Source: Acidobacteriota bacterium (GTDB lineage: Bacteria; Acidobacteriota; Polarisedimenticolia; JACPZX01). From it: a stretch of DNA of 64,000 nt. Below are positions 135 through 18,037 of this stretch, piece by piece. Numbering within the stretch: the first letter of the stretch is position 1; each line of letters opens with the position of its first letter. Position numbers and translations under genes: made by a program. The stretch lies in contig JACPZX010000016.1 in NCBI GenBank assembly GCA_016195325.1, forward strand, positions 8,703 through 72,702, read 5' to 3'. Under the pieces are notes generated by a model that saw only the letters and a list, made by a program, of their open reading frames with translations, searched no databases and had not been told where the DNA came from.

Positions 135-1259
135 TCACGCCTTGCGTCCCGCGGCCGGCCCGCCGCCCGCCGAGGGCTGGTAGATCAGGCCGGCGCCCCT
201 GTTGATCATGTCCTGAAGCTCCTCGGGATTCGAGGAGGTCGTCAGGGCGGTCTGAAGGGAAATCTGCTTCTTGAAGTAGGACGAGGCGAGGGCCTGGTTG
301 AACGTCTGCATCCCGTGCTTGGACTGGCCCGCCTGCATCATCGCGTACACCTGGTGGATCTTGTCCTCGCGGATGAGGTTCCTCACCGCCGCGTTCGGGA
401 CGAGGATCTCCATCACGAGCGCGCGGCCCTGGTTGTTGGCCCTGGGGAGCAGCGACTGGCAGAGGATCCCCTCGAGCACGAACGACAGCTGCGCGCGCAC
501 CTGCGACTGCTGGTGCGCCGGAAAGACGTCGATGATGCGGTTGATCGTCTGCGTCGCGGAGTTGGTGTGGAGCGTGGCGAAGGTGAGGTGACCCGTCTCG
601 GCGATGCGCAGCGCCGACTCGACGGTCTCGAGGTCGCGCATCTCGCCGATGAGCACGACGTCGGGATCCTGTCTGAGCGCCGAGCGGAGCGCGTTCGCGA
701 ACGTGTGCGTGTCGGCGTGCAGCTCGCGCTGGTTGACGATGCACTTCTTGTGGGAGTGCAGGTACTCGACGGGGTCCTCGATCGTGACGATGTGCTCGTG
801 CCGCTCGGCGTTGACCTTGTCGAGCATGGCCGCGAGCGTCGTCGACTTGCCGGAGCCCGTCGGCCCGGTGACCAGCACGAGGCCGCGCGGCTTGTCGCAG
901 AGGGTCGCCACGACCTCGGGGAGGCCGAGATCCTTGAACCCCTTGATCTCCCACGGGATCAGGCGGAAGGCCGCGGCGACGGCGCCGCGCTGCGAGAAGA
1001 CGTTCGCGCGGAACCTCGCGAGCCCCTTGATGCCGAAGGAGAAGTCGAGCTCCAGCGTCTCCTCGAACCGGTGCTTCTGGTTGTCGGTCAGCACCGAGTA
1101 GCAGAGCTGCTTGGTCTCGGGAGCGTTGAGGGGGGGGAGCTGGAGCGGAATGAGCTTGCCGTCGATGCGGATCTGAGGCGGCGAGTTGGTCGTCACATGG
1201 AGGTCGGTCCCCCCCTGCTCGACGAGGGTCTTGAGCAACTGGTGAAGCGTGATGTTCAT
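135..1259 (-). CDS. pilT: Twitching-motility retraction ATPase PilT
   Basis: 374-aa ORF with a Walker A motif (GPTGSGKSTT), Asp/His boxes and the overall PilT/PilU signature (…LVLVTGPTGSGKSTTLAAMLD…IVTIEDPVEY…IGEMRD…). Confidence 0.92.
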   Translation of the reverse strand: MNITLHQLLKTLVEQGGTDLHVTTNSPPQIRIDGKLIPLQLPPLNAPETKQLCYSVLTDNQKHRFEETLELDFSFGIKGLARFRANVFSQRGAVAAAFRLIPWEIKGFKDLGLPEVVATLCDKPRGLVLVTGPTGSGKSTTLAAMLDKVNAERHEHIVTIEDPVEYLHSHKKCIVNQRELHADTHTFANALRSALRQDPDVVLIGEMRDLETVESALRIAETGHLTFATLHTNSATQTINRIIDVFPAHQQSQVRAQLSFVLEGILCQSLLPRANNQGRALVMEILVPNAAVRNLIREDKIHQVYAMMQAGQSKHGMQTFNQALASSYFKKQISLQTALTTSSNPEELQDMINRGAGLIYQPSAGGGPAAGRKA

Positions 1260-1299
1260 GACTTCCCCCCGGGCGTCCAGGCCCCGCGGCGCGGCTCGA

Positions 1300-3015
1300 T
1301 TAGAGTACCGTCTCCCTGAGCACTTCCTCCACCGTCGTCAGCGAGTCCTTGATCTTGCGGAGGCCGCTGCCCCGGAGGGTAATCATGCCATCCTCCACCG
1401 CCTTCCGCCTCAGCTCGATGGCGGAGGCGCCGGTCAGGATCATCTCGCGGATCCCCTCGGTGATCTCGAGGACCTCGTAGAGCCCGACGCGCCCCTTGTA
1501 GCCGGTGTTGTTGCAGATCGTGCACCCCTTCCCCTTGAACAGCTTGATCTTGGCCGCGTCCTCCGCGGCGAACCCGATCTCGACCAGGGCGCTCGGGGGC
1601 ATGTGGATCTCTTCCTTGCAGCCCGCGCACAGCCGCCTCACGAGGCGCTGGGCGCAGATGAGGTTGACGGAGGTCGAGACGAGGAACGGCTCGATCCCCA
1701 TGTTCATGAGCCGGTTGATGGTCGAGGGGGCGTCGTTGGTGTGCAGCGTCGAGAGGACGAGGTGGCCGGTGAGGGCGGCCTTGACCGCGATCTCCGCCGT
1801 CTCGAAGTCGCGGATCTCTCCGACGAGGATGATGTTGGGATCCTGGCGGAGGAACGAGCGCAGCGCGGCGGCGAAGTTGAGCCCGATCTGCTCCTTCACC
1901 TGCACCTGGTTGATGCCGTGCAGGTTGAACTCGACCGGGTCCTCGGCCGTCATGATGTTCGTCTCGGGAGTGTTCACGCGGCTTATCGAGGAGTAGAGAG
2001 TGTTCGTCTTCCCGGACCCGGTCGGCCCCGTGACCAGCACCATGCCGTACGGCCTGAAGATCGCCTTCTCGAACCTCGCCAGCGACTCGATCTCGAACCC
2101 GAGCCGCGTCATGTCGAGCATGAGGTTGTCCTTGTCGAGGAGACGCAGGACGATCTTCTCTCCGAAGAGGCACGGCAGGACCGAGACGCGGTAGTCCATC
2201 TCCTTGGTCTTGTTCTGGAGCTTCATCTTGATCTTGATGCGGCCGTCCTGCGGAAGCCGCTTCTCCGCGATGTCGAGCTTCGCCATGATCTTCAGGCGCG
2301 ACGTGATCGCGTCCTTCAGCTTCAGGGGCGGGTTCATGATCTCGTAGAGCACGCCGTCGATCCTGAACCGCACGCGGAAGTCCTTCTCGTACGGCTCGAT
2401 GTGGATGTCCGACGCCCCGCGCTTGATGGAATCCGAGAGGATGAGGTTGACCAGCTTCACGACCGGAGCTTCCTCGGTCGCCGCCTCGAGGCGCTGGAGG
2501 TCGAGCTCCTCTTCCTCTTCGAGGAGCTCGAGGCTGTCCGTGTCGGACTCGTTCATCTGGTCCATGACTTTCTTGAGCTCGAGCTGGTGGGACGAGCCGT
2601 AGTACTTGTCGATGGCGTCCTTGATCGCGATCTCGCTGGCGACCACGGGCTCGACGTTGTAGCCGGTCATGAACTTGATGTCGTCCATCGCGAAGACGTT
2701 CGTCGGATCGACCATCGAGATCGTCAGCGTCGCCCCCGTGCGCTGCACGGGCATGATCAGGTACTTCTGCGCGACCTCGGAGGGGATGAGCTTGACGACG
2801 GTTTCCTCGATCTGGATTTCGCGGAGGTTGATCGCCGGAACGCCGTACTGCTGCGAGAGGAGCTGGGTGATGTCGTCTTCCTTGACGAACCCCATCTTGA
2901 CGAGGTTATATCCGAGCTTGCCCCCGTTGACTTTCTGCGCTTCGAGGGACTTGTTCAGTTGCTCCTGGGTGATCAGGCGAGCCTTCAGGAGCATTTCACC
3001 GATCTTGATGGCCAT
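1300..3015 (-). CDS. pilB: Type IV pilus assembly ATPase PilB (GspE family)
   Basis: 571 aa with an N-terminal GSPII domain, Walker A (VTGPTGSGKT), the tetracysteine motif CAGCK…CTICNNTGYKGR and a C-terminal signature shared with GspE/PilB. Confidence 0.93.
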   Translation of the reverse strand: MAIKIGEMLLKARLITQEQLNKSLEAQKVNGGKLGYNLVKMGFVKEDDITQLLSQQYGVPAINLREIQIEETVVKLIPSEVAQKYLIMPVQRTGATLTISMVDPTNVFAMDDIKFMTGYNVEPVVASEIAIKDAIDKYYGSSHQLELKKVMDQMNESDTDSLELLEEEEELDLQRLEAATEEAPVVKLVNLILSDSIKRGASDIHIEPYEKDFRVRFRIDGVLYEIMNPPLKLKDAITSRLKIMAKLDIAEKRLPQDGRIKIKMKLQNKTKEMDYRVSVLPCLFGEKIVLRLLDKDNLMLDMTRLGFEIESLARFEKAIFRPYGMVLVTGPTGSGKTNTLYSSISRVNTPETNIMTAEDPVEFNLHGINQVQVKEQIGLNFAAALRSFLRQDPNIILVGEIRDFETAEIAVKAALTGHLVLSTLHTNDAPSTINRLMNMGIEPFLVSTSVNLICAQRLVRRLCAGCKEEIHMPPSALVEIGFAAEDAAKIKLFKGKGCTICNNTGYKGRVGLYEVLEITEGIREMILTGASAIELRRKAVEDGMITLRGSGLRKIKDSLTTVEEVLRETVL

Positions 3016-5375: not shown

Positions 5376-5897
5376 TCATCTGAGACCCGCGAGGGTCGAG
5401 ACGATCCGCGCCGCCAGGGCGTCGGGCAGGTCCGCCGAGGCGTCGACCCTCAGGTCCGCGGCCCGGTAGGCGGGAAGCCGATCGGCGAGAAGGGCCTCCA
5501 TGCGCGGGCGGTCCGAGAGGAGCGGCCGGTGCTCGGAGGCGCGGCACCGCTCGAGCATCACGTCGAGCGGCGCGTCCAGCCAGATCGAGATGCCGGTCCG
5601 GTGGATGAAGTCCCGGTTCTCCCAGAGGGTGAGCGTCCCGCCCCCCGTCCCGACGACGACGCCCGGCGCGTCGACGAGGCGCAGCGCCCGCGCCTCGAGG
5701 CGGCGGAAGACCTCCTCGCCGTCGTCCCGAAAGAGCTCGGCGATCGTGCGCCCGGCCTCGCGCTCTATCTCGCGATCGAGATCGACGAACCGGAAGCGGA
5801 GCTCGCGCGCGAGGCACTCGCCGACCGACGTCTTCCCGGCCCCCATGAATCCCACGAGGTAGATCCGCCGGCGCCTGTCGCGATCGATGATGGCCAC
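5376..5897 (-). CDS. aroK: Shikimate kinase
   Basis: 173 aa with the P-loop LVGFMGAGKTSVG and a shikimate-kinase-like core. aroK downstream of a pilMNOPQ region is a conserved arrangement in several proteobacteria. Confidence 0.85.
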   Translation of the reverse strand: MAIIDRDRRRRIYLVGFMGAGKTSVGECLARELRFRFVDLDREIEREAGRTIAELFRDDGEEVFRRLEARALRLVDAPGVVVGTGGGTLTLWENRDFIHRTGISIWLDAPLDVMLERCRASEHRPLLSDRPRMEALLADRLPAYRAADLRVDASADLPDALAARIVSTLAGLR

Positions 5898-5945
5898 GTC
5901 AGTCCCACTCCCGGTGCGGGAGGCCGCTCCCCGGAGGCGAGTATA

Positions 5946-6563
5946 TCAACGAGGTTTCGGGGCGAGCGCGAGGTACGCGCGCGTCCGGGCCGCGATGTCC
6001 TCCGCCCGCATGAGGTCGGAGATGACGGCGACGGACGCGGCTCCCGCCGCGAGGACCCCGGGCGCGTTTCGGAGGGTGATCCCTCCGATGGCGACGAGCG
6101 GAAGGCGCGCCCTCGCGGCCGCCGCGGCGACCGCGGCCAGGCCGAGGGGCGGCCGGCGGACGGAGGCGTTGGGGGTCTCGAAGACGGGCCCGAGGGCCAC
6201 GTAGTCGACCGGGAGATCGCACGCCGCGATCGCGACCTCGACCGAGTGGGTCGAGACGCCGAGGATGGCGGCGGGGCCGAGGAGCTCGCGGGCGGCGCCG
6301 GCCGGAAGATCGTCCTCGCCGAGGTGCGCTCCGGCCGCGCCGGTCACGCTCGCGACGTCGGCCCGATCGTTCACGATGACCGAGAGACCCCGCACGAGAA
6401 GGCACTCCCGGACCGCCTCGGCGAGAAGGCGGTCGGGCATCGATTTCTCCCGCACCTGGACGATCGTCGCGCCGCCGTCCGCGAGACGCCTGGCGATCTC
6501 AGCGTGGGAGAGTCCGCCCGCGAGGGCGCGGTCGGTGATCGGATAGAGCGCGGGAAGCGTCAG
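5946..6563 (-). CDS. thiE: Thiamine-phosphate synthase
   Basis: ThiE-like motifs are present (IVNDR…GVHLG…LGVSTHS…DYVALGPVFET…IGGI). The first in-frame ATG is at 6455, but the conserved N-terminus (…LTLPALYPITDRALAGG…) continues upstream in the same frame with no canonical start before the accC stop. The true start is probably non-ATG and unresolved. Confidence 0.7.
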   Translation of the reverse strand: MTLPALYPITDRALAGGLSHAEIARRLADGGATIVQVREKSMPDRLLAEAVRECLLVRGLSVIVNDRADVASVTGAAGAHLGEDDLPAGAARELLGPAAILGVSTHSVEVAIAACDLPVDYVALGPVFETPNASVRRPPLGLAAVAAAAARARLPLVAIGGITLRNAPGVLAAGAASVAVISDLMRAEDIAARTRAYLALAPKPR

Positions 6564-6582
6564 GGGGATTCGCCCGCGCCGG

Positions 6583-7916
6583 TCACGGCACGTAGCGCTC
6601 GAGGAACTTCGTCGAGACGTTCCCCTTCTGGAAATCCGTGTCGGCGAGGATCTTCTTGTGCAGCGGGATGTTCGTCTTGATCCCCTCGACGACCATGACG
6701 TCGAGAGAGCGCCTCATCCGCGAGATCGCCTCCTCGCGCGTGCTCCCGTGAGTGATCACCTTGGCCACCATCGAGTCGTAGTAAGGCGAGATGCGGCAGT
6801 CGGAGTGCACCGCGGAGTCGACGCGGACGCCGGGGCCTCCCGGCTGGTGGTAGCTCGTGATGAGGCCGGGGCTGGGCATGAACGTGTCGGGGTCCTCGGC
6901 GTTGATCCGGCACTCGATGCTGTGGCCGCGGACGATGATCTCCTCCTGCTTCTTCGACAGCCGGTGGCCCGCGGCGACGAGGATCTGCTCCTTCACGATG
7001 TCGACCCCCGTCACCATCTCGGTCACCGGGTGCTCGACCTGGACTCGGGTGTTCATCTCGATGAAGTAGAACCTGCCGTCCTGGAGGAGAAACTCGATCG
7101 TCCCCGCGTTCTCGTACTTCACGGAGCGCGCCGCCTTGAGCGCGGCCTCCGCCATCCGGCGCCTCAGATCGGCTGTCAGCGCCGTGGATGGGGACTCCTC
7201 GAGCACCTTCTGGTGCCGCCGCTGGATCGAGCACTCGCGCTCGCCGAGATGGATGATGTTCCCCTTCTCGTCGGCCATGATCTGGAACTCGATGTGACGG
7301 GGATTCGGGAGGTACTTCTCGATGTAGACGTCGGGGACCGTGAACGCGGCCCTCGCCTCCTCCCGCGCGACGGGAAAGACGCGGCCGAGCTCCCGGGCGT
7401 CCGTCGCGATGCGCATGCCGCGCCCGCCCCCTCCCGCCGCGGCCTTCACGATGACCGGGTAGCCGATCTCGGAGGCGATGGCGGTGGCGCGCTCGACGTC
7501 CTCGACGACGCCGTCGCTGCCCGGGAGGACCGGGACTCCCGCCTTCCTCACGATCTCCCGCGCCCGCGACTTCTCGCCCATCATCGCGATGACGTTCGGC
7601 CGGGGACCGATGAACTTGATCTTGCAGGCCTTGCACACCTCGGCGAAGGCCGGCGATTCGGCCAGGAACCCGTATCCGGGGTGAATCGCCTCGGCGTCGG
7701 TGATCTCGGCCGCCGCGATGACTCCGCTGATGTTGAGGTAGCTCTCGCTGCTCTTCGCCGGGCCGATGCACACGTCCTCGTCGGCGAACCGGACGTGCAG
7801 CGAGTCCTTGTCGGGCTCCGAGTGCACCGCGACCGTCTTCACGCCGAGCTCCCGGCAGGCGTAGACGATCCGCAGGGCGATCTCGCCGCGGTTCGCGATC
7901 AGAATCTTCTTGAACA

Positions 7917-7917
<1 letters not shown>
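6583..7917 (-). CDS. accC: Acetyl-CoA carboxylase biotin carboxylase subunit
   Basis: 444 aa starting [17 protein letters not shown] with an ATP-grasp domain and a full biotin-carboxylase signature. The rest of the 914-aa track ORF upstream of this Met is readthrough of accB/antisense and was not counted. Confidence 0.95.
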
Positions 7918-8417
<500 letters not shown>

Positions 8418-8450: not shown

Positions 8451-9587
8451 TCAGACGATGAGCATCTCCTTCGGCGTCGTGGTCAGGACGCGGCAACCGT
8501 CCCGCTCCACCACGACGATGTCCTCGATCCGCACGCCGCCCCAGCCTTCGATGTAGATCCCCGGCTCGATCGTCACGACCATGCCGGCGGCGAGGAGAGC
8601 CCCGTCCGCGGCGCGGCCCACGTGGGGTGCTTCGTGGACCTCGATCCCCACCCCGTGTCCCGTCCCGTGGCGGAACGCCGCGTCGGCAAAGCCGGCCTCG
8701 GCCACGGCGTCCCGCGCGGCGCCGTCGACGGCCGCGATGGAAGCGCCGTGCCGCACCAGCCCTTCCGCGCGGCGCACTCCCTCGAGGACGGCCGCGTGGA
8801 CGCGCCGCCCGAGGTCGCCGGGTTCGCCGAGAAAGACCGTCCTCGTCATGTCGCTCGTGTACCCGTCCACCTTCGCGCCGATGTCGACCACCACGGGCTC
8901 TCCCGCGACGAGACGCCGCATCGAGGCGCGCGCGTGCGGCAGCGCTCCGCGCGGACCCGACGCGACGATCGAGTCGAAGGCGGGGGACTCGGCCCCGCGC
9001 TCCCGCATCGTTCCCTCGATCACCGCCGCGACGCGCGCCTCCGTGACGCCGCCGGCGATCTCCGCGACTCCGGCGTCGAATGCCTCCGCGTTCACGCGGA
9101 CCGCGCTCTCGATCCTTCGAATCTCCTCCGGCTCCTTCACCGATCGATGCCCCTCGACCAGCCCCCGGGTCGCGACGAGCCGGGCGCCCGTGGCGGCGGC
9201 CTCGAGGTCCTCCCTCTCCGCGACCGTCACGTGCGCCGCCTCGAACGCGACGCGGACCGCCCCCGCCGCCCGGAGCGCCGCGCGCAGGGGGGCCCCGGTC
9301 ACGGTCTCGACCGTCCCGCCGGTCCACTCCTCGCCGGCCTGAATCGTGTACCGCGAGTCGGTGAAGAGCGTCGCCGCCCCCTTCGTCACGAGGATCGCCC
9401 CCGACGATCCGCTGAATCCCGAGAGGTAACGCACGTTCGCGCGCGATCCGACCAGCAGCGCGACGGCGCCGGCCTCGTCGATCTTCTCACGGATCCGCTC
9501 CAGCCTGGACGGCACTCGGGACGTCTCCGACGCGAAAGGGTTAGCGGAGATCCGACTCCAGGCGAGCGGCGGCTCGGGAAGCCTCAA
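8451..9587 (-). CDS. M24 family Xaa-Pro aminopeptidase / dipeptidase
   Basis: Creatinase N-terminal domain plus an M24 catalytic domain ([13 protein letters not shown]…[11 protein letters not shown]…GGVRIEDIV). An alternative GTG start at 9515 ([14 protein letters not shown]…) fits a typical N-terminus better and would remove the overlap with the roadblock gene. Confidence 0.85.
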
Positions 9588-9897
9588 ACCTCACCCTCCC
9601 CGGCACCGCGTTGCGTCCGGCCACGAGGATGAGAAAGAGATCGGCGCTCACAGGCTGCACGACGCAGGACCACGCCTCCAGCCGGAGAGTCAGATCCCTC
9701 ACGCCGCCGCCCCCGGCGTTGCGCCCGAGGGCCTCCACCGATCGCACCACCGGGGTGAGCTCGGCGGCGATGACCTCCGGCGACGGTCCGCCCGGCGAGG
9801 CCCAGTGCTCGACGACCATGCCGTCGCGCCCGACGAGCGCGGCGGCCTCACACCCCGGCAGACGTCGGGCCGCTTCTTCCAGCGTCGTCCTGAACAT
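9541..9897 (-). CDS. Roadblock/LC7 (MglB-like) domain protein
   Basis: 118 aa with the pattern GCEAAALVGRDGMVVEHW…LTPVVRSVEAL…VRDLTLRLEAWSCVVQPVSADLFLILVAGRNA, typical of the Roadblock/LC7 fold. Sits immediately downstream of the TPR/FimV-C-like gene on the same strand. Confidence 0.6.
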   Translation of the reverse strand: MFRTTLEEAARRLPGCEAAALVGRDGMVVEHWASPGGPSPEVIAAELTPVVRSVEALGRNAGGGGVRDLTLRLEAWSCVVQPVSADLFLILVAGRNAVPGRVRFEASRAAARLESDLR

Positions 9898-11164
9898 CTT
9901 TCAGCCTCCGAATCCTGCCGAGCCATCCCTCGAGTGTCTGGATCTTCCGCTGCGTGACGCTTCCCTGAGGTGCCAGCCTCTCGCGCAGCTCGCGAATGCG
10001 CACCGCGGCCTCGTGGTTGTGCGGATCGCCGGCGAGCACCGCCTCGTAGACCTCCAGCGCGCGCTCGGGCATCCCCTGCGCGAGGTAAATCTCGGCGAGA
10101 GTCGGCGTCGGAAGCGCCCCCACCGTGGGCTCGTCGTCGTGGGCCACCGGCTCTCCGTCGCGCGCGGCGAGAGGACCGGGCTCTGCGGCGGGCCCGCCGG
10201 CGGCCGCGGGGGCTGCCACGGGCACCGTCAAGCCGTCGAGGGCGCTCTCCAAGGTTTCTGCCGGGTGGGAGGCCGCGGGAACTTCATCAGCGCCGAAGAC
10301 GGGCGCGCGCATCATGACCGTCGCGGCGGAGGCATCGTGCGCCGGCGACGGCGTCGAGGGGGCGTGCGCCTCCATCCCGGCGACGACGTCGGCGGGCGAC
10401 ATGATCGTGGTTCGGACGTCGCGGGGGGCCCGGATTCCGACGGGGGGCGCCATCTCGATGGGCGGCCCCACGACATCTTCCTCGCGTGCTCCCTTCTCCA
10501 CATCCGGCGCCGTCATCATGACCGTGGCGGCGACGGCCTCGCCCGGGATCATCATGACGGTGGAGGCGACGGCCTCGGAGGGTGTCATGATCACCGTGGA
10601 GGCGATTTCGGGGAGTGTCATCATGACGGTGGACGCCACGGGTTCGGGCGGAGCGGGGGTGACGACCTCATCCGCGTCACCGACCTCGGCCGCCTCGGGC
10701 TCCGGCCTCGGAAGCGTCTCCAGCCCAGCCGTCGATTCCGCCGGGGGTCCGCTCTCGAGCTCCTCGATCTGCTTCAGGGCCTCCGCGTCCCCCGGCTGGA
10801 TCGCGAGAAACTGCCTCAGGGCGGCCACCGCGCCGGGACGATCGCCAACTCCGGCGAGGGCGTCGGCCAGGAGGCGCCGCGCGAGGAGGTTGTCGGGGGC
10901 CTGCTTGACGACGCGCTCGAGCTCCGGCCGGGCCTCCGCGAAGAGGCCCATGTCGAAGAGCACCTTCCCGAGCAGGACGCGGGCGGAGTGGTACGCCGGG
11001 TGCCTCTGCAGCCCCTCGCGGCAGAGGCGCGCCGCCTCGTCGAGGTTCTTCAGCGCATGGTGTTCCCGCGCCAGCTCGTAGAAGACCCGCGAGGTCGGAT
11101 CGAGCTTCAGGCGCCGGGCGAGGTGCAGGGCTTTCGGCGATGGCGTGATGGTTTTTTCTGGCAT
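9848..11164 (-). CDS. TPR protein with internal 12-aa tandem repeats and a FimV-C-terminal-like motif
   Basis: N-terminal TPR repeats (YHSARVLLGKVLFDMGLFAEARPELERVV…). A central acidic region carries ~5 copies of xxA(S/A)TVMMTxPE. The C-terminus (PTLAEIYLAQGMPERALEVYEAVLAGDPHNHEAAVRIRELRERL) resembles the FimV C-terminal domain. The start is taken as ATG 11164 (MPEKTITPSPKALHLARRL…); an alternative ATG lies at 11215. Confidence 0.65.
   Translation of the reverse strand: MPEKTITPSPKALHLARRLKLDPTSRVFYELAREHHALKNLDEAARLCREGLQRHPAYHSARVLLGKVLFDMGLFAEARPELERVVKQAPDNLLARRLLADALAGVGDRPGAVAALRQFLAIQPGDAEALKQIEELESGPPAESTAGLETLPRPEPEAAEVGDADEVVTPAPPEPVASTVMMTLPEIASTVIMTPSEAVASTVMMIPGEAVAATVMMTAPDVEKGAREEDVVGPPIEMAPPVGIRAPRDVRTTIMSPADVVAGMEAHAPSTPSPAHDASAATVMMRAPVFGADEVPAASHPAETLESALDGLTVPVAAPAAAGGPAAEPGPLAARDGEPVAHDDEPTVGALPTPTLAEIYLAQGMPERALEVYEAVLAGDPHNHEAAVRIRELRERLAPQGSVTQRKIQTLEGWLGRIRRLKDVQDDAGRSGPTSAGV
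10505..10655. repeat. Imperfect in-frame tandem repeat, ~36-nt period, four to five copies, inside the TPR/FimV-like CDS
   Basis: Visible directly: gtcatcatgaccgtggcggcgacggcctcgcccgggat / catcatgacggtggaggcgacggcctcggagggt / gtcatgatcaccgtggaggcgatttcggggagt / gtcatcatgacggtggacgccacgggttcgggc. A diverged copy sits at ~10311. Confidence 0.7.
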
Positions 11165-11261
11165 GAGTGTCGGGCCGGTGCGCCCGGATCGATCGGGCGC
11201 GGATCGGCGGCCCATGTTATCCGAGAGCGGCGCCCGCCATCAAGAGACGGCGTGCATGCGC

Positions 11262-11312
11262 CCCGAAAAGACAAAAGGCGGCTGGAGAGCCCTCGTCGGG
11301 GCCCGTCCAGCC
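11262..11312 (-). terminator. Putative rho-independent terminator after the lipoprotein gene, ending the pilMNOPQ-lipoprotein transcript
   Basis: Minus-strand stem GGCTGGA…TCCAGCC (7 bp, roughly 19-nt interior with extra pairing) followed by GCCTTTTGTCTTTT. Confidence 0.4.
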
Positions 11313-11340
11313 GCCCGGATGCCGCGGCGCCGTGCCGGCG

Positions 11341-11865
11341 CTATTGATCGACGAAGTTGACCGAGAAGCCCGCGAACGGGGTTTCCGCCGGATTTCCGGC
11401 GAGATCCTGTCCCTTGAACCGGACGAAGCACTGCCACGAATCGCCGACCGCCGCGCCGGTGGCGATCTTCTCGGCGACCGTGACCGCGGTCGTCGTGATG
11501 TCGGCCGAGCCGTTGACCGGGATGGTGAATCCCCCGGGGCCCGTCGCGCGGGCCACGGTGTTGCCGGCGAAGGTGCAGACGCGCTCGGACGACGTGACGG
11601 CGATGTCGCTGAAATTGCCGGTGGTCGTCGTGCGGGCCAGATTCTTCACCGTGACCGACGTCGAGTCGTCGTGGAGGGGCGTCGGGAGGCCCGTGTTCGG
11701 GTCCGTCGGCGTGATGTCCGACAGGACGAGCGCCGGGTTCACCTTCTCGATGGTGAGCAGGCCTTGACCCTGCGTCGGGTCGTCCAGGTTCTTGTTGCAG
11801 CCCGGGAGCAGGAGCCCCGAGACCGCCACGAGGACCAGGAGAAGGACTTTCACTTCGCTTCGCAT
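11341..11865 (-). CDS. Small lipoprotein of unknown function encoded directly downstream of pilQ
   Basis: ATG at 11865 is preceded by a strong SD (GAGGAGGG, 5-nt spacer). The signal peptide ends in a lipobox (LLLPG-C). The mature protein is ~150 aa, Thr/Gly/Ala-rich with a beta-strand pattern and two Cys residues. Only a 10-nt gap separates it from pilQ. Confidence 0.7.
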   Translation of the reverse strand: MRSEVKVLLLVLVAVSGLLLPGCNKNLDDPTQGQGLLTIEKVNPALVLSDITPTDPNTGLPTPLHDDSTSVTVKNLARTTTTGNFSDIAVTSSERVCTFAGNTVARATGPGGFTIPVNGSADITTTAVTVAEKIATGAAVGDSWQCFVRFKGQDLAGNPAETPFAGFSVNFVDQ

Positions 11866-11875
11866 CGAGCCCTCC

Positions 11876-14509
11876 TCAAACATTCGTCACGATCTTGGGC
11901 GTCAGGAAGACGATCAGCTCCGAGGAATCCTTCTTGAAGTCCTTGTTCTTGAACAGCCAGCCGAAGAAGGGGATTCGATGGAGCCCCGGGATGCCGGTCT
12001 CGGTGTCGGTCTCCTGGAGTTTATAGACCCCGCCGATGACGGCCGTCGTCCCGGTGCGGACGAGAATCTGCGTGTCGACGCGCTCGGTCACGATGCCCGG
12101 CGTGCCGCCGACGCTGACGGTCGAGCTCGGCTGGTTGTTCTCGACGAGGACCTTCATGATGACCGTCTGCTCGGCCGTGATCTGCGGCGTGACGATGAGC
12201 CGCAACGAGGCCGGCACGTACTGGACCTCGATCTGGGTGGCCGTCGTGGTGACGACCGGGATCTGCACGCCCTGCTCGATCGTCGCCGGCTGGTTGTTCT
12301 GGGTGACGACCTTCGGGGCGGACAGGATCCGGACCTTGCCGTCGGACTCGAACGCGTCCAGCGTGACGTCGAGGGTCACGCTGTCGAGGACGTTGCCGAG
12401 GGCCAGGCCGACCGTTCCGGCGTTCTTCGACGATGCCAGGTTGACGTCGGCGTTGAAGTCCGCCCGGTGCGGGAACTGCAGATTGGTCTGCGTCCCGTGC
12501 GCCGGGTCGGCCAGGGCCTTGAAGCCCCAGTCGATGCCGAGGCTGCGCTCGAACGACCGGATCGCCTCGACGATGCGCGCCTCGATCTGGACCTGCGGCG
12601 TCTGGGTGTCGAGGGCGTTGAGCAGGTTGTCGTACGCAGGGCGCTTGTCCGGGATGTCGCTGATGATGATCGTGTTCGTCCGGGCGTCCGCGATGATCTT
12701 GCCTCGCTCGGACCGGACCTGCTGCATGACGGCCATCGCCTCCTGCACCTTGGCATAGCTGAGCTTGCGGGTGAAGGTGACGGGGTCGACTTCCTGCTCC
12801 TGCGCCTGCTTGAGGGCGCGGCGCTCTCCGGCCTCGGCGCGCAGCTTCTGCGTGCGCGCGATGCGGACGACGCTGTCCTCCTCGACCGCGTCGAGACCCT
12901 GGTTCTTCAGGATCACCTGGAAGGCCTGGTCCCACGGGACCTGCGTCAGCCGGATGTCGATCTTGCCGGAGACGTCCGGGTCGAGGACGACGTTCATCTT
13001 CATCACGTCGGAGAAGAAGAAGAACACCTCGCGCAGATCGGCGTCGCGGAACGTGACCGAGATCTTCTCGCCCCGGTAGTGGCGCTTGTCGCCGGCGATC
13101 GTCTGGCTCTGGAAGCTGACCCCCGCGGGAAGCGAGGAGGTCGATTCCTCTTTGGAGGACGCCGCGGGGTCGGAGCGGTCGAAGAGAACGATGTCCTTGG
13201 CCACATCCTTCGCGCTCGTCGGCACGAGGCGGGGCTGGAGCTCCGTCGGGTCGGCCGCGGGCGCCGCCGCGACGGTCTGAGCCGGCTTTGGCTCGACGGC
13301 CGCAGGGGCTGAGGCTCCCGCGGGCTCCGCGAAGGAGACCGTCGGGGTCACCCTCCCGTCGGCGCGACGCGCGGCGGTCACGGGCGCGGCGGCCGGCGGC
13401 GTGGGGATCGCCTTCGGCACGATCGCCGCCACCGTCGGGACGGTGGTCGCGGCGCTCTGCTGCATCGCCTCGGCGCCGAGGAGAACCCTGATGCCGTCGG
13501 GATCGGTGACCACCTGGTGCTCGATCGGATGCGTGAGGTCGAAGACGATGCGGACGACCTTCTCGGGGTGCGTCTTGAACTGGGCGACCCTCACCCGCTG
13601 CAGGGGCTCTGCCGAGACGGGGTAGCTCTTCTCGGGGACCCTGTTCGTGACGCCGAGGAGGTCGACGACGAGGCGATCCGGGTTCTTCAGGATGAACTCG
13701 TTGTGACGGAAGGAGCCGTCGCCCACGATCGTGACGCTTCCCTTGGTTCGGGAGCCGTCCACGACGAGCCCGGTCACGACGCTCGCGTCGTCGCGGCGCG
13801 GGGCGGGCGGGGCGGGGATTTCCGCGGGCGCGCTCACCGCCACGGGCACCTGGATCGCCGCATCGGCCGGAGCCGCCACGGTGGCCGGCGCGGGCGTCGC
13901 CGCGAGGGCTGGCGCGGGCATCGCCGCGAGTGCCGGCGAGGGCCCGGAAGCCATCGCCGCGGCCGCGTCCGGAACGACGCTGGCCTGCCCCTCGACCGGC
14001 GTCAGGTAGACCGCCAGCCCGGAGCCCTCCGGGACCACCTTCGCCTCCATCGCCGATGGCCCGCTGAACTCGATGCGCGCGTGCGAGGATCCGTGATGCG
14101 AGGGAAGACCCGAGATCCTGATCGGGTTGAACCCTTCGCCGGCCATCGAGACGTCCGCCGGCAGCTTCGAGAGATCGACGTTCGGGATCTCGAGGATGAA
14201 GGCGTTCGGCTCGGGCTGGTATGACGTGTAATTGACCGGCGCTGACGCCGCGATCTCGACCTTGACGCTGCCCGCGGGCTCCGTCGCCGGGACGACGCGG
14301 ATTCCCGTGAGCGCGGTCACGTCGGAGACCGGCAGCGTGGCGGCCGAGTCGGACGCTCCGCGCGCGGCCTCCGCTCCGGGGGTCTGTTCCCCGCGGACTG
14401 AGGCCTGATCGGGCCCCGACTCCACCGGAACGCTCGCCCTTCCGGACGCGCCGCATCCTGCGGCCGTCGCGACGAGCAGGCAAAGCCCGAGGCTCTTAGG
14501 CCAGGTCAT
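11876..14509 (-). CDS. pilQ: Type IV pilus secretin PilQ with N-terminal AMIN domains
   Basis: 877 aa with a lipoprotein-type signal (LLVATAAGC), repeated AMIN-like beta domains, a long Ala/Pro linker, secretin N-domains and the C-terminal secretin domain (…GGVYKLQETDTETGIPGLHRIPFFGWLFKNK…ELIVFLTPKIV). Confidence 0.93.
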   Translation of the reverse strand: MTWPKSLGLCLLVATAAGCGASGRASVPVESGPDQASVRGEQTPGAEAARGASDSAATLPVSDVTALTGIRVVPATEPAGSVKVEIAASAPVNYTSYQPEPNAFILEIPNVDLSKLPADVSMAGEGFNPIRISGLPSHHGSSHARIEFSGPSAMEAKVVPEGSGLAVYLTPVEGQASVVPDAAAAMASGPSPALAAMPAPALAATPAPATVAAPADAAIQVPVAVSAPAEIPAPPAPRRDDASVVTGLVVDGSRTKGSVTIVGDGSFRHNEFILKNPDRLVVDLLGVTNRVPEKSYPVSAEPLQRVRVAQFKTHPEKVVRIVFDLTHPIEHQVVTDPDGIRVLLGAEAMQQSAATTVPTVAAIVPKAIPTPPAAAPVTAARRADGRVTPTVSFAEPAGASAPAAVEPKPAQTVAAAPAADPTELQPRLVPTSAKDVAKDIVLFDRSDPAASSKEESTSSLPAGVSFQSQTIAGDKRHYRGEKISVTFRDADLREVFFFFSDVMKMNVVLDPDVSGKIDIRLTQVPWDQAFQVILKNQGLDAVEEDSVVRIARTQKLRAEAGERRALKQAQEQEVDPVTFTRKLSYAKVQEAMAVMQQVRSERGKIIADARTNTIIISDIPDKRPAYDNLLNALDTQTPQVQIEARIVEAIRSFERSLGIDWGFKALADPAHGTQTNLQFPHRADFNADVNLASSKNAGTVGLALGNVLDSVTLDVTLDAFESDGKVRILSAPKVVTQNNQPATIEQGVQIPVVTTTATQIEVQYVPASLRLIVTPQITAEQTVIMKVLVENNQPSSTVSVGGTPGIVTERVDTQILVRTGTTAVIGGVYKLQETDTETGIPGLHRIPFFGWLFKNKDFKKDSSELIVFLTPKIVTNV

Positions 14510-15135
14510 ACGCCGCCCTCCCTCGTCAGATTCAACTTCTTCTCTATGTCGCGGTAGGGTTTGATCCGCGTCGGGTCGTTGATTTTCTGTCGAAACACCA
14601 CAGTTCCCGTGGGCGCATCCACTCTCAGGACCTCCCCGTCGTACAGCTTGTCACCCGCTTTGAGGCTGGCGCCGTAACCTTCCGGTCCGACGACGAGAGC
14701 CACGCCGCCGGATCGTCTCGAGAGCACGCCCACGAGATTGACCTCGGTGATCAGCCAGCACTCCATCCCCTCGCCCTCGCACTTGCCGACATCCTCGAGC
14801 TTGTTGGCCTCCGCGGGGGAGATGAACGGATCGCGCCGATCTCCCGGGTCGTACGTCAACCCCTTGCCGCTGGCCGAAGCCTCCTCCTGCTTGTGGACGT
14901 CCTCGAGAACCTTGTTCTCCCCGGCGGCCGGTGCCGGCGCCGATGACGCGGCCCCGCCCGATGCCGGGGGAGCCGATGCGGCGGCCGATGCGGCGGCCGC
15001 CTGCCGCGCCCTGGCCGGTCCGCGCCCCTGCGGCGTATTGTTCTCGTCGGGCACCCTGGCCCACAGAGCGCTTGCGGCGCAGGCCGCCACCAGGAGGGCC
15101 GACGCGCTGATGAGCTTCGTCACGCGCATGGTCAT
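14506..15135 (-). CDS. pilP: Type IV pilus lipoprotein PilP
   Basis: 209 aa with a signal/lipobox (LLVAAC), a Pro/Ala-rich linker and a C-terminal beta-domain. Its position between pilO and pilQ and the ATGA overlap with pilQ fit PilP. Confidence 0.8.
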   Translation of the reverse strand: MTMRVTKLISASALLVAACAASALWARVPDENNTPQGRGPARARQAAAASAAASAPPASGGAASSAPAPAAGENKVLEDVHKQEEASASGKGLTYDPGDRRDPFISPAEANKLEDVGKCEGEGMECWLITEVNLVGVLSRRSGGVALVVGPEGYGASLKAGDKLYDGEVLRVDAPTGTVVFRQKINDPTRIKPYRDIEKKLNLTREGGV

Positions 15136-15695
15136 CCTTCCTTTTCGGTGTAGACGAACGTCAGTGCCGAGAACGAGCTGACGATAGACCGCGATCGGGC
15201 GTCGGCCCCGGAGTTCTTCGTGATGCTGACGTTGCGCACGTTGATGATGCGATCGTGCTTGCCGATCACGTCGTAGAAACGGCCGAGGTCGTGGTAGTTG
15301 CCCACGACGTTCATCGAGTACGTGTATTCCTTGTAGAACTCGCCCTGCTTGATGCTGGCCTCGGAAAGCGACTTGATGCCCAGGTTAAACCGGCTGGCCT
15401 GGCTCTCGAGCCACTTGATGATGATGCCGGCCTCGGGCTCCGTCGGGAGAATCCGTCGCAGGCTGGCGAGCTCGATGTCCTTCTGGGCGATGAGCTTCTC
15501 GAGCTCCGCGCGCCGCCTCGCGGCCTCGCGCCCCTTGGCGATCTCGGCCTGGAGCCGATCGTGCTCCTGCTGCTTGCCGTCGATGTCGGACTGCTCCTGC
15601 GAGAAGTTCGGGTACGACTTCCACGCGCCGAACGCGAGCAGGCCGCAGACCCCGACCACGATCGCGACCCGCGCCCATACCGGCATCTTGTCCAT
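15132..15695 (-). CDS. pilO: Type IV pilus inner-membrane protein PilO
   Basis: 187 aa with a single N-terminal TM helix and a coiled coil, placed between pilN and pilP. Confidence 0.8.
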   Translation of the reverse strand: MDKMPVWARVAIVVGVCGLLAFGAWKSYPNFSQEQSDIDGKQQEHDRLQAEIAKGREAARRRAELEKLIAQKDIELASLRRILPTEPEAGIIIKWLESQASRFNLGIKSLSEASIKQGEFYKEYTYSMNVVGNYHDLGRFYDVIGKHDRIINVRNVSITKNSGADARSRSIVSSFSALTFVYTEKEG

Positions 15696-15722
15696 CGTAA
15701 AGTCCTCCAGCCCCGGGGCGCG

Positions 15723-16337
15723 TTAGTGCGCGCCCTCGGCAGGCGCCGGGGCCGCGGGCGCCGCGGCGGGCTTGGGATTCGGCACGAACCTCGCCGCCAG
15801 GGAGAAAGCGACGCCCTCGGCGCCGTCGTCGCGGTAGCTGATGCGGCCGACGTCCGAGAAATAGGGCGAAGCGTCCAGATTGTTGTAGAAGTTCGCGTAG
15901 GCCGTGGGCGTCGTCGCCTTGCCGCTGAAGGTCAGGGCGCCGCCATTCTCGTTCATCGCGGTCAGCCAGAGGAAGTCGGGGAGATTGCGGCTGATCTCGT
16001 CGAGAAGCCTGACCGGAACCTGCTGCTCGTTCTTCAGCTTGGTGATCAGGTCGATCTGGTGCTCGACCCTCTGCTTCTTCTTCTCGAGCTCGTCGGCGAC
16101 GCGGCGATCTTCCTCGACCTTCTTCATCGCGACGTGATCGTCCTCGAGCTTGCGGTCGAGATCGTCGATCTGCCCCTTGAGGTCGAGCTGCTTCCAGACA
16201 AGAAAGCTCAAGGTCCCGATGATGAGGACGGCGAAGAGCACGTTCTGAAGGGTCCCCGCCCCCTCGAGGTTGACGGTCGGCGCCTTTCTTCCTGCGGTCT
16301 CCTTGCGGGCGACGGCCAGAAGATTGACTTTGATCAT
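15723..16337 (-). CDS. pilN: Type IV pilus inner-membrane protein PilN
   Basis: Starts MIKVNLLAV…, followed by a TM helix and a coiled coil. ATGA overlap with the pilM stop (16334-16337). Confidence 0.8.
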   Translation of the reverse strand: MIKVNLLAVARKETAGRKAPTVNLEGAGTLQNVLFAVLIIGTLSFLVWKQLDLKGQIDDLDRKLEDDHVAMKKVEEDRRVADELEKKKQRVEHQIDLITKLKNEQQVPVRLLDEISRNLPDFLWLTAMNENGGALTFSGKATTPTAYANFYNNLDASPYFSDVGRISYRDDGAEGVAFSLAARFVPNPKPAAAPAAPAPAEGAH

Positions 16338-17401
16338 CGGTCGCCCACCTTCCTCAGCGCCAGGCCCACCGCGACGCTCGCGCACGAGGCGAGCGGCTCG
16401 AGACGGTCGGCGGGGAACTGTCGGTCGTTGACCGCCACTTTCTTGAAGGGATCCAGCATCTCGACGTGCGTTTCGAACCGCTGGCCGAGGTAGGCCGCGA
16501 GGTTCGGCGTGCGGGAGCCCCCGCCCGAGAGGACCATGAGAGAGACCGGGTCCGACGAGGAGGTCGCCTTGAAGAAGTCGAGCGTTTTCTGGATCTCGGT
16601 GCCGACCTGCTCACCGACCGCCTGGAGGACCGAGGCCACCCGCTCCGGGTTCGCCCCCTCGACCTCCTGCCCCTTCTTGAGGAGCTCGGCCTGATCGAAC
16701 GGCACGTTGAGGTCTTTCTGAATCGCCTCGGTGAAGAGGTTTCCGCCGATCGAGATGTCGCGCCAGAAGATCGAGGAACCGGACTGGAGGATGGCGATGT
16801 TCGTCACCGCCGCCCCGATGTTGATGAGCCCGACGACCTTGTCCGAGGGAACGTCGTAGTTCACCTCGTAGGCGTTCTGGAGCGCGAAGACGTCGACGTC
16901 CACGACCTGCGCCGACTTTCCGGCGTTGGCGAGAACCGTCGTGTAGTCGTTGATCTTGTCTTTCTTCACGGCGACGAGGAGGACGTCCATGTTCCCTTCG
17001 CCGGAGAGGCTGGGCCCCTCGAGGACCTGGTAGTCGATGTTCACGTCGTCGACGTCGAAGGGGATGTACTGCTCCGCCTCCCACTGGATCGACTCTCCCA
17101 GCTCCTCCTGCGTCATCTGGGGAAGGCTGATCTTCTTGATGATCACCGAGTGGCCCGAAAGCGAGATGGCGACCTCCTGGGACTTGATCCGGCTCGTCGT
17201 GAAGAGACGTTGGATCGTCTCCGCGACGAGCCCGGAGTCCATGATCGCGCCATCCACGATGGCTTCCGGCGACAGGGGCTCGATCCCGATGTTCAGAAGC
17301 TGGTACCCGCGCCCCTTGCCGAGATCTTTGAGCTCGACGGCCTTGACGGAACTGGACCCAATGTCGAGACCGACCAGGTTCTTGGTTCGCCCGAAGAGCA
17401 C
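16334..17401 (-). CDS. pilM: Type IV pilus actin-like ATPase-fold protein PilM
   Basis: 355 aa beginning LFGRTKNLVGLDIGSSSVKAVEL… with an FtsA/actin fold. GTG start with a GGAGAG SD upstream. Confidence 0.9.
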   Translation of the reverse strand: MLFGRTKNLVGLDIGSSSVKAVELKDLGKGRGYQLLNIGIEPLSPEAIVDGAIMDSGLVAETIQRLFTTSRIKSQEVAISLSGHSVIIKKISLPQMTQEELGESIQWEAEQYIPFDVDDVNIDYQVLEGPSLSGEGNMDVLLVAVKKDKINDYTTVLANAGKSAQVVDVDVFALQNAYEVNYDVPSDKVVGLINIGAAVTNIAILQSGSSIFWRDISIGGNLFTEAIQKDLNVPFDQAELLKKGQEVEGANPERVASVLQAVGEQVGTEIQKTLDFFKATSSSDPVSLMVLSGGGSRTPNLAAYLGQRFETHVEMLDPFKKVAVNDRQFPADRLEPLASCASVAVGLALRKVGDR

Positions 17402-17404
17402 CCC

Positions 17405-17470
17405 GTCTCTCCTATCCGTCAGATGTCAACGACTTAAACCAGCACCCAAAACGGCGTGTCAAGTTACCGT
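17405..17470 (-). promoter_or_regulatory. Candidate sigma70-like promoter for pilM (TTGACA-N18-TTTAAG on the minus strand)
   Basis: The reverse complement of 17415-17465 reads TTGACAcgccgttttgggtgctggTTTAAG, about 15 nt upstream of the pilM SD. The -35 element overlaps a motif (GTGTCaaGTTACCGTGA) that recurs at 17772-17791. Confidence 0.3.
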
Positions 17471-17842
17471 GACGCTTTTCGCCTTGTCAAGACAAAAGAA
17501 TGCGAGACAAAACAAAAGAGCGTGGGCATAGGCGCTTGGGCTGCAATCAACAGTCGTCGCCTCCCGCCGTGCCCGAAACGATCCGGTCGGTTCGTCAAGA
17601 CCTCCGCGGGGCGACTGGTTCGCGCGTGAGCTATGTTCCGGTTCTTCCGTTTCGGCGCAGCGGCAATATTATGCCGCTCTCCGTCACAAGCAAGCACTTC
17701 CGAGCGGCGGCCCCGAATCGGAACCTCTGAAGCCTCCCCGCCCCATCATTTTCATTTGATCCGCCGGGGGTGTCGTGTTACCGTGAGGCTCCCCTTCACG
17801 AACGGCCGCTGACGGCCCGACGAGTTCCGGAGTGACGAAAGC

Positions 17843-18037
17843 ATGGCGAGACGCTGCGAGTTCTGCGGCAAGGGTCCGCAGTTCGGTCACAACATCAGTC
17901 ACGCGCACAACCTGACCAGGGCCGTCTGGTATCCGAACCTCCAGCGGGTGCGAGCCCGGTTCGGCAAGGCGGTTCGGCGCGTCAAGATCTGCACCCGCTG
18001 CCTCCGGACCGGCCGCGTCCAGAAGGCCGTCTCCTAG
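17843..18037 (+). CDS. rpmB: 50S ribosomal protein L28
   Basis: 64 aa, [37 protein letters not shown]…, with conserved L28 residues throughout. Confidence 0.9.

Follow-up and report, generated by a model that had tools for sequence, protein, structure and literature searches.

Secretins serve type II and type III secretion, type IV pili and filamentous phage, and all of them need partner proteins, the known ones of which fall into a few unrelated folds. To our knowledge, the partners described for type IVa pili are only the tetratricopeptide repeat (TPR) pilotins, TsaP and, recently, the Slk plugs and PA0359. Here we analyze 64,000 nucleotides (nt) of an Acidobacteriota bacterium (contig JACPZX010000016.1, positions 8,703 to 72,702, hereafter the window), in which the type IVa secretin gene pilQ is followed directly by a gene for a small predicted lipoprotein that we call X. 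Judged by its sequence and modelled structure, X appears to be by kind a secretin accessory lipoprotein that is new to the described families, and it is a candidate for such a role.

Several described partners provide a background against which X can be viewed. The PilQ-like secretin of Deinococcus radiodurans (PDB 8CO1) carries two accessory lipoproteins, DR_0940 ('GspT') and DR_1364 ('GspP'), bound 15:15 (PMC10828601). DR_1364 forms an immunoglobulin (Ig)-like belt, with 95 residues modelled, and DR_0940 forms a cap, with residues 28-199 modelled (PMC10828601). In solved type II complexes AspS and PulS encircle the periplasmic side of the barrel like a belt, their acylated N-terminus directed toward the outer membrane (PMC12531336). 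The liposecretins BfpB and TcpC of type IVb pili have co-encoded small partners, BfpG and TcpQ, that form a 1:1 hoop; a partner of the BfpG type promotes multimerisation and is dispensable for targeting (PMC12531336).

Within the window the start codon of X lies 10 nt beyond the stop codon of pilQ (11876-11878), in the arrangement TGA-GGAGGGCTCG-ATG. We compared this with 14 other loci (L001-L012, L014 and L015), which were picked from members of the X family spanning it to a profile E of ~1e-3, and whose upstream DNA was then read; L013 has no upstream sequence and is outside the count. In all 15 loci with readable upstream DNA, X is preceded at a distance of 10-24 nt by the end of a PilQ-type secretin gene. 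The spacers of the 14 other loci nearly always contain a purine-rich GGAG/GAGG motif, which is weakest in L015. The linkage persists down to ~25% identity in X, and it is constant while the downstream genes for TPR, Roadblock and M24-peptidase proteins vary between loci. It is also kept in L015, where the upstream context is altered. Over the same loci the divergence of X is roughly double that of the last 400 residues of PilQ; where X retains 62% identity, for example, this part of PilQ retains 92%, and where X is down to 25-30%, it retains 52%. The first-pass annotation of this DNA had set conservation beside pilQ in relatives beforehand as the test that could refute its proposal, and the gene was found in that place at every locus that could be read.

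The start of X requires some comment. The list of open reading frames (ORFs) includes a longer reading of X (11341-11883, minus strand), and the homologues favour the ATG at 11865 (MRSEVKV...) as the start; with the upstream ATG at 11883 the lipobox would still be present. The G+C content of X is 0.90 at third and 0.49 at second codon positions, resembling that of the neighbouring genes, in a window of 68% G+C. Downstream of X there is a 17-bp GC-rich hairpin (11276-11316) followed by UUUUGUCUUUU down to 11266, and RNA folding of the 106-nt terminator region gives -58.9 kcal/mol, with z = -3.6. A simple pattern scanner finds no minus-strand terminator after X, the loop exceeding the length rule of the scanner, and the same scanner finds no minus-strand terminator-like site from pilM to X. 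Similar hairpins with T-rich runs can be seen by eye 3' of X in L001, L002, L003, L005 and L011. The genes pilM (16334-17401), pilN, pilO, pilP (14506-15135, minus strand) and pilQ mutually overlap or abut, and X is the last gene of a pilMNOPQ-X transcription unit. Thus the ORF that the first-pass annotation had placed 10 nt after pilQ behind a strong Shine-Dalgarno sequence, as part of the pilMNOPQ transcript and with the terminator coming only after it, is found as described (Table 1).

By pattern inspection the N-terminus of X, MRSEVK-VLLLVLVAVSGLLLPG-C23, divides into the charged MRSEVK, the hydrophobic VLLLVLVAVSGLL and L-P-G-C23, which fits the lipobox [LVI..]-x-[GAS]-C. Each of the 55 family members aligned has the lipobox cysteine directly after a G or an A, and the residue that follows the cysteine (+2) is most often Asn (76% of members) and seldom Asp. 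Within the tether the motif C-N-x-x-[LIT]-D-D-P is conserved at ~80-87%, with D28, D29 and P30 at 87%, 85% and 78% across these 55 members, and residues 17-33 are disordered in the AlphaFold2 model, with a predicted local distance difference test (pLDDT) score below 50. The linkers of lipoproteins are usually variable, and the conservation of this one, which is unlike that, suggests a specific contact. Beyond it the family carries a signature F-x-G-x-D-x-x-G-x-P at residues 150-159, conserved at ~80-95%. Mature X has 152 amino acids (aa) counted from Cys23, is rich in Thr and Ser, and has an isoelectric point (pI) of 4.5; all 59 mature family proteins scored are acidic, with pI 4.05-4.82.

X contains two cysteines besides Cys23, C97 and C146. 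Across the 55 members both are present in 19, neither in 35 and one in a single protein, a co-occurrence that fits a likely disulfide. The invariant lipobox and the covarying cysteine pair together place X outside the cytoplasm. An AlphaFold2 model calculated with 13 homologues has a mean pLDDT of 80.7, and contains 10 strands and two short helices; over residues 36-172 the blocks score 83-95 for most of the domain and 73-80 at residues 71-90. A second model, of a family member (P0060) that is 27% identical to X, has the same strand order at a lower confidence of 68.5. On these predictions X is a lipoprotein with a beta-rich, non-TPR fold, as had been proposed. Its earlier description as a two-Cys protein is correct for the cysteines other than that carrying the lipid, and the total is three.

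Table 1. Features of the pilMNOPQ-X locus, in positions of the window
Feature	Position	Strand	Remarks
X (lipoprotein coding sequence)	11341..11865	-	174-aa precursor; TAG stop 11341-11343; ORF list and sequence
Predicted signal peptide with lipobox, residues 1-23	11797..11865	-	Cys23 codon 11797-11799
Tether, residues 24-35	11761..11796	-	acidic motif C-N-x-x-[LIT]-D-D-P
Predicted Ig-like beta-sandwich, residues 36-172	11350..11760	-	~137 residues; Cys97 codon 11575-11577; Cys146 codon 11428-11430
pilQ-X spacer with Shine-Dalgarno GGAGG	11866..11875	-	10 nt; GGAGG immediately after stop; sequence
Intrinsic terminator 3' of X	11266..11316	-	GC-rich hairpin and U-tract; RNA folding
pilQ	11876..14509	-	877 aa; Pfam Secretin, Secretin_N, N0, AMIN; TIGR02515
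pilM, pilN, pilO, pilP	14506..17401	-	Pfam PilM_2, PilN, PilO; weak PilP match

The family to which X belongs is small and previously unnamed, and it lies outside any described family of pilotins or partners. A word-indexed search returned 14 relatives, and a profile search covering all of 1.84 billion representatives returned 51 clusters with members of 93-229 aa, among whose 51 representatives there is no informative fusion or stray architecture. There is no paralogue of X in the window, and each locus has one copy. No Pfam or NCBIfam family is assigned to X, nor to 44 family members except for Asp-rich C-terminal tails in a few. Neither X nor these 44 members match a LysM domain or a TPR (Pfam, NCBIfam), and none of the 44 matches PF04351 (PilP). 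X is identical to NCBI MBI3447818.1, listed as 'MAG: hypothetical protein [Acidobacteria bacterium]', where MAG denotes a metagenome-assembled genome. Other Acidobacteriota MAGs are the source of P0016 and P0020, and every name found is 'hypothetical protein'. A scan of a genome collection, limited to patterns of the close family, matched one MAG, and all family members derive from uncultured genomes. In the literature we found no relevant description of a gene downstream of pilQ, nor of relatives of DR_0940.

Some features of individual members may be recorded here. HZE89996.1, at least 90% identical to X, comes from a MAG labelled Verrucomicrobiae, which is probably an error of binning or labelling; the other named records (those of the window, P0016 and P0020) belong to Acidobacteriota, with the exception of one labelled 'bacterium' only. 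A sub-family including P0060, P0025, P0028, P0031 and others (alignment A3) has an Asp/Gly-rich insertion A-C-V-D-x-D-G...D-x-N-G-D-G-T that resembles a calcium-binding loop, together with an alternative Cys pair, one in the insertion loop and one C-terminal. P0037, P0024, P0032 and P0050 have C-terminal extensions that are Asp-rich and thrombospondin type 3-like or Cys-rich, and P0037 matches Pfam TSP_3 with E = 1.6e-11.

Comparison of the modelled fold with known structures gives top matches that are unrelated to secretion, namely TRAP-alpha, ApaG, Spo0M and LEA14, with TMEM106B also present. There is in addition a match to 8co1_Q3, a chain of the D. radiodurans secretin complex with 142 residues having coordinates, which by elimination is probably the cap subunit DR_0940. 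The fold is a common one and the match is non-specific; it falls short of proving homology. None of PilF, PulS, AspS, MxiM, InvH, TadD, PilP, TsaP and BfpG appears in the lists of fold matches. The match of X to LEA_2 (PF03168) falls below threshold (13.6 bits, cut-off 25.4; E = 0.095), and none of 44 members matches it at E <= 0.05. Given LEA14, TMEM106B and Spo0M among the fold matches, X could still be remotely related to LEA_2/WHy-type proteins.

On the evidence of its domains, PilQ of the window is a canonical type IVa pilus secretin. It matches TIGR02515 with 357 bits, and its best solved relative is PilQ of Myxococcus xanthus (3jc8, E = 5.6e-82). The Pfam Secretin domain occupies residues 719-874 of 877, and no S domain follows it: 12 of 12 PilQ C-termini stop no more than a few residues past the last strand of the barrel, that of the window ending with ELIVFLTPKIVTNV at the stop codon. 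The N-terminus of PilQ (14453-14509, minus strand) has a signal peptide and lipobox, MTWPKSLGLCLLVATAAG-C19 (LLVATAAG-C19), and the lipobox is conserved in L001-L004 and L006. In L011 and L015 PilQ has an ordinary signal peptide instead, and X is kept there too. These sequence features suggest that PilQ here is a 'liposecretin', that is a lipidated type IVa PilQ with AMIN domains, and we know of no previous description of such a protein.

How then does X compare with the known partners? As is predicted for X, DR_0940 and DR_1364 are small lipoproteins (155-208 aa) with beta-rich folds. They have no detectable sequence similarity to X, and their genes lie outside the secretin operon whereas X lies inside. 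The secretin encoded next to X is a canonical AMIN-N0-N3 type IVa PilQ whose pilMNOPQ operon has pilB and pilT in its vicinity, whereas the D. radiodurans machine makes no pili and is called a type II secretion system by its authors (PMC10828601). The match to 8CO1 indicates that beta-rich lipoproteins of the fold class of X can be integral partners of a secretin. The earlier statement that known pilotins are TPR lipoproteins is correct for type IVa pili, and is too narrow for secretins in general given the beta-rich accessory lipoproteins of D. radiodurans (PMC10828601). PilF of Pseudomonas aeruginosa, PilW of Neisseria and Tgl of M. xanthus resemble X in being predicted outer-membrane lipoproteins, with disulfides in PilW and Tgl. 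Unlike X, they are six-TPR alpha-helical superhelices that are encoded away from pilQ and bind a beta-lip transiently (PMC10653833).

The remaining partners each share some properties with X and differ in others. PulS/OutS/GspS, AspS, MxiM/ExsB/YscW and InvH are likewise small lipoproteins, of ~120-180 aa. These pilotins bind a C-terminal S domain of the secretin, whereas PilQ here ends with the secretin domain, and their folds (helical bundle, alpha/beta and cracked barrel) are not that of X. BfpB and TcpC are like PilQ of the window, with its predicted lipobox, in that the secretin itself is lipidated. BfpG differs from X in that it lacks a lipid anchor and adopts an N0-like fold, and it binds at the N3 ring. 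TsaP is a LysM protein associated with type IVa pilus secretins that forms a peripheral ring on PilQ, and X is without LysM. As is predicted for X, PilP is a small beta-sandwich lipoprotein of the pil operon, but it belongs to the inner membrane and the alignment complex, and it has no similarity to X. The idea that X is a paralogue of PilP was rejected, as BLASTP of X against PilP of the window gives E = 0.44 and a separate pilP gene is present.

We give an even chance to the reading in which X, held by its lipid anchor, serves the type IVa secretin PilQ as an accessory subunit in the form of a ring, anchor or stabiliser. X would be translated from the pilMNOPQ-X mRNA directly after PilQ, and the tight translational arrangement of the two genes suggests production in similar amounts, at a ratio of ~1:1. 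It would be exported via Sec, lipidated at Cys23 and sorted to the outer membrane. There the short conserved acidic tether of ~12 residues would keep the Ig-like domain, itself acidic, on the outside of the PilQ barrel wall close to the membrane, either as a periplasmic belt or as a surface cap. Binding PilQ directly with about one copy per protomer, X would form a ring or hoop that stabilises or anchors the multimer. By analogy, its role may be comparable to that of the D. radiodurans secretin lipoproteins, the AspS/PulS belts or BfpG around BfpB. We favour this reading because the 15 of 15 linkage is kept despite changes in the flanks and divergence of X, because X is a single-copy protein without fusions, with an invariant lipobox, a conserved tether and a uniformly acidic character, and because there are precedents in beta-rich secretin lipoproteins (PMC10828601) and in a liposecretin with a hoop partner (PMC12531336). 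More tentatively, and with considerable doubt, we suggest that in this Acidobacteriota lineage the type IVa pilus secretin might be built from two co-translated lipoproteins, a lipidated PilQ and an Ig-like X that acts as a permanent lipid-anchored ring (belt or cap) in place of a TPR pilotin.

A number of points weigh against an accessory subunit of PilQ. In every locus accB-accC is found further downstream, and those loci that carry a name belong to Acidobacteriota; with this shared synteny (pilMNOPQ-X...accBC), apparently within one lineage, the 15 contexts are not independent, and the adjacency of pilQ and X may partly reflect inheritance. The case for PilQ binding is built from genomic linkage and precedent. 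Searching PDB sequences with profiles A1 and A2 at E up to 10 gave nothing meaningful and no 8CO1 chain, and the single PDB profile match (E = 0.0026) covers the signal peptide only. X could possibly be retained in the inner membrane. Moreover X is restricted to a lineage, is present in uncultured genomes only, and has a fold that is non-diagnostic. From the first-pass annotation, which saw in X a possible new secretin-associated factor, the secretin-associated, non-TPR lipoprotein of a new family stands on genomic evidence and structure prediction, and the specific roles that it named (pilotin, outer-membrane anchor, TsaP-like factor) stay as candidates.

X might instead be a true non-TPR pilotin that binds the PilQ monomer transiently, delivers it by the Lol route, promotes multimerisation and departs, replacing PilF/PilW/Tgl. 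It is predicted to be a small lipoprotein and its gene shares a transcript with that of the secretin, and L011 and L015, whose PilQ carries an ordinary signal peptide, retain it too. In the window, L001, L002 and L015 the region from pilM to pilB contains no gene for a TPR lipoprotein, and the TPR protein encoded next to X lacks a signal peptide. These genomes are however seen in part, and a Tgl- or PilF-like gene could lie elsewhere. Pilotins of distinct secretion systems do differ in fold (PMC12531336), but all known type IVa pilotins are six-TPR superhelices that grip an unfolded beta-lip (PMC10653833), whereas X is predicted to be a rigid beta-sandwich. In addition, the lipobox of PilQ itself in the window, L001-L004 and L006 could take PilQ to the outer membrane unaided, making a Lol-targeting pilotin less necessary. 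For both reasons we regard a classical targeting pilotin as rather unlikely. We consider it unlikely too that X is an envelope lipoprotein not directed at PilQ, for example a general outer-membrane or stress protein of the LEA_2/ApaG-like kind, or a pilus-related adhesin or regulator, carried along by descent as the last gene of the pil operon within a single lineage. Such a role would agree with the synteny common to all loci, with top fold matches that lie outside secretion and with the weak LEA_2 match. It fits poorly with a coupling of 10-24 nt to pilQ that survives flank changes and the faster divergence of X, with the finding of no family member elsewhere or as a second copy, and with a terminator that is always 3' of X and never before it.

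The acidic tether raises the question of whether X is exposed on the surface, where it would either cap or crown PilQ at its extracellular rim or be a surface lipoprotein dependent on the pilus machinery, with the tether as a signal for export or retention. Bacteroidota lipoproteins carry acidic surface-export signals, which the motif after the lipidated cysteine of X resembles. X has a strongly acidic composition with much Thr and Ser, and the matched chain 8co1_Q3, with coordinates for 142 residues compared with the 95 modelled for the belt DR_1364, would probably be the cap. However, Acidobacteriota are not known to have a route for exporting lipoproteins to the surface, chain Q3 is identified only indirectly, the fold match is non-specific, and a cap must let a pilus of ~6 nm through. 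We therefore think a surface location improbable. By far the least probable role is that of a plug sealing the lumen of idle PilQ in the manner of SlkA/SlkB of P. aeruginosa. Unrelated plugs have been proposed for bacteria without Slk (PMC13392014), but the Slk proteins are soluble and periplasmic, whereas a lipid anchor with a tether of ~12 residues should be too short to round the barrel wall into the lumen. The plug was rejected on this tether length.

The surroundings of the operon can be described briefly. Upstream of pilM there is ~450 nt of non-coding DNA (17402-17850) between pilM and the divergently read rpmB; it contains several TTGACA-like boxes, and no sigma-70 promoter is detected there at scanner level. 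On the other side accB-accC, joined in the window only by thiE and aroK (5376-8417), lies between pilMNOPQ-X and pilB-pilT (pilB and a pilT-like ATPase, 135-3015). The order pil-accBC-pilBTC is retained even in L015, the most divergent locus. Directly after the terminator a gene for a 455-aa TPR protein (9848-11215, minus strand) encodes five or six 'A[SA]TVMM'-like repeats in its middle part, and it is overlapped by a Roadblock/LC7 (MglB-like) gene (9541-9897, minus strand). Among the other loci, L001-L005 and L007 also have the TPR gene, and all of these but L005 have the Roadblock gene next to it. L012 and L015 lack the two genes, and L006 has a 95-aa TPR remnant only. The pair may be a module for pilus polarity or regulation.

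If X is indeed a partner of PilQ, an Ig-like lipoprotein encoded in the pil operon would be a new class of partner for a canonical type IVa pilus system, and would provide a link to the beta-rich lipoproteins on the Deinococcus secretin. Beta-sandwich secretin lipoproteins would then be a recurrent and possibly ancient class of partner, seen so far only in the atypical Deinococcus machine, and overlooked because they evolve too fast for sequence searches. A simple rule, to look for a small lipoprotein gene within ~25 nt after pilQ, could be used to search for other fast-evolving partners. For the Acidobacteriota, an abundant but poorly studied phylum of soil, X is a concrete candidate for the stabilisation of PilQ.

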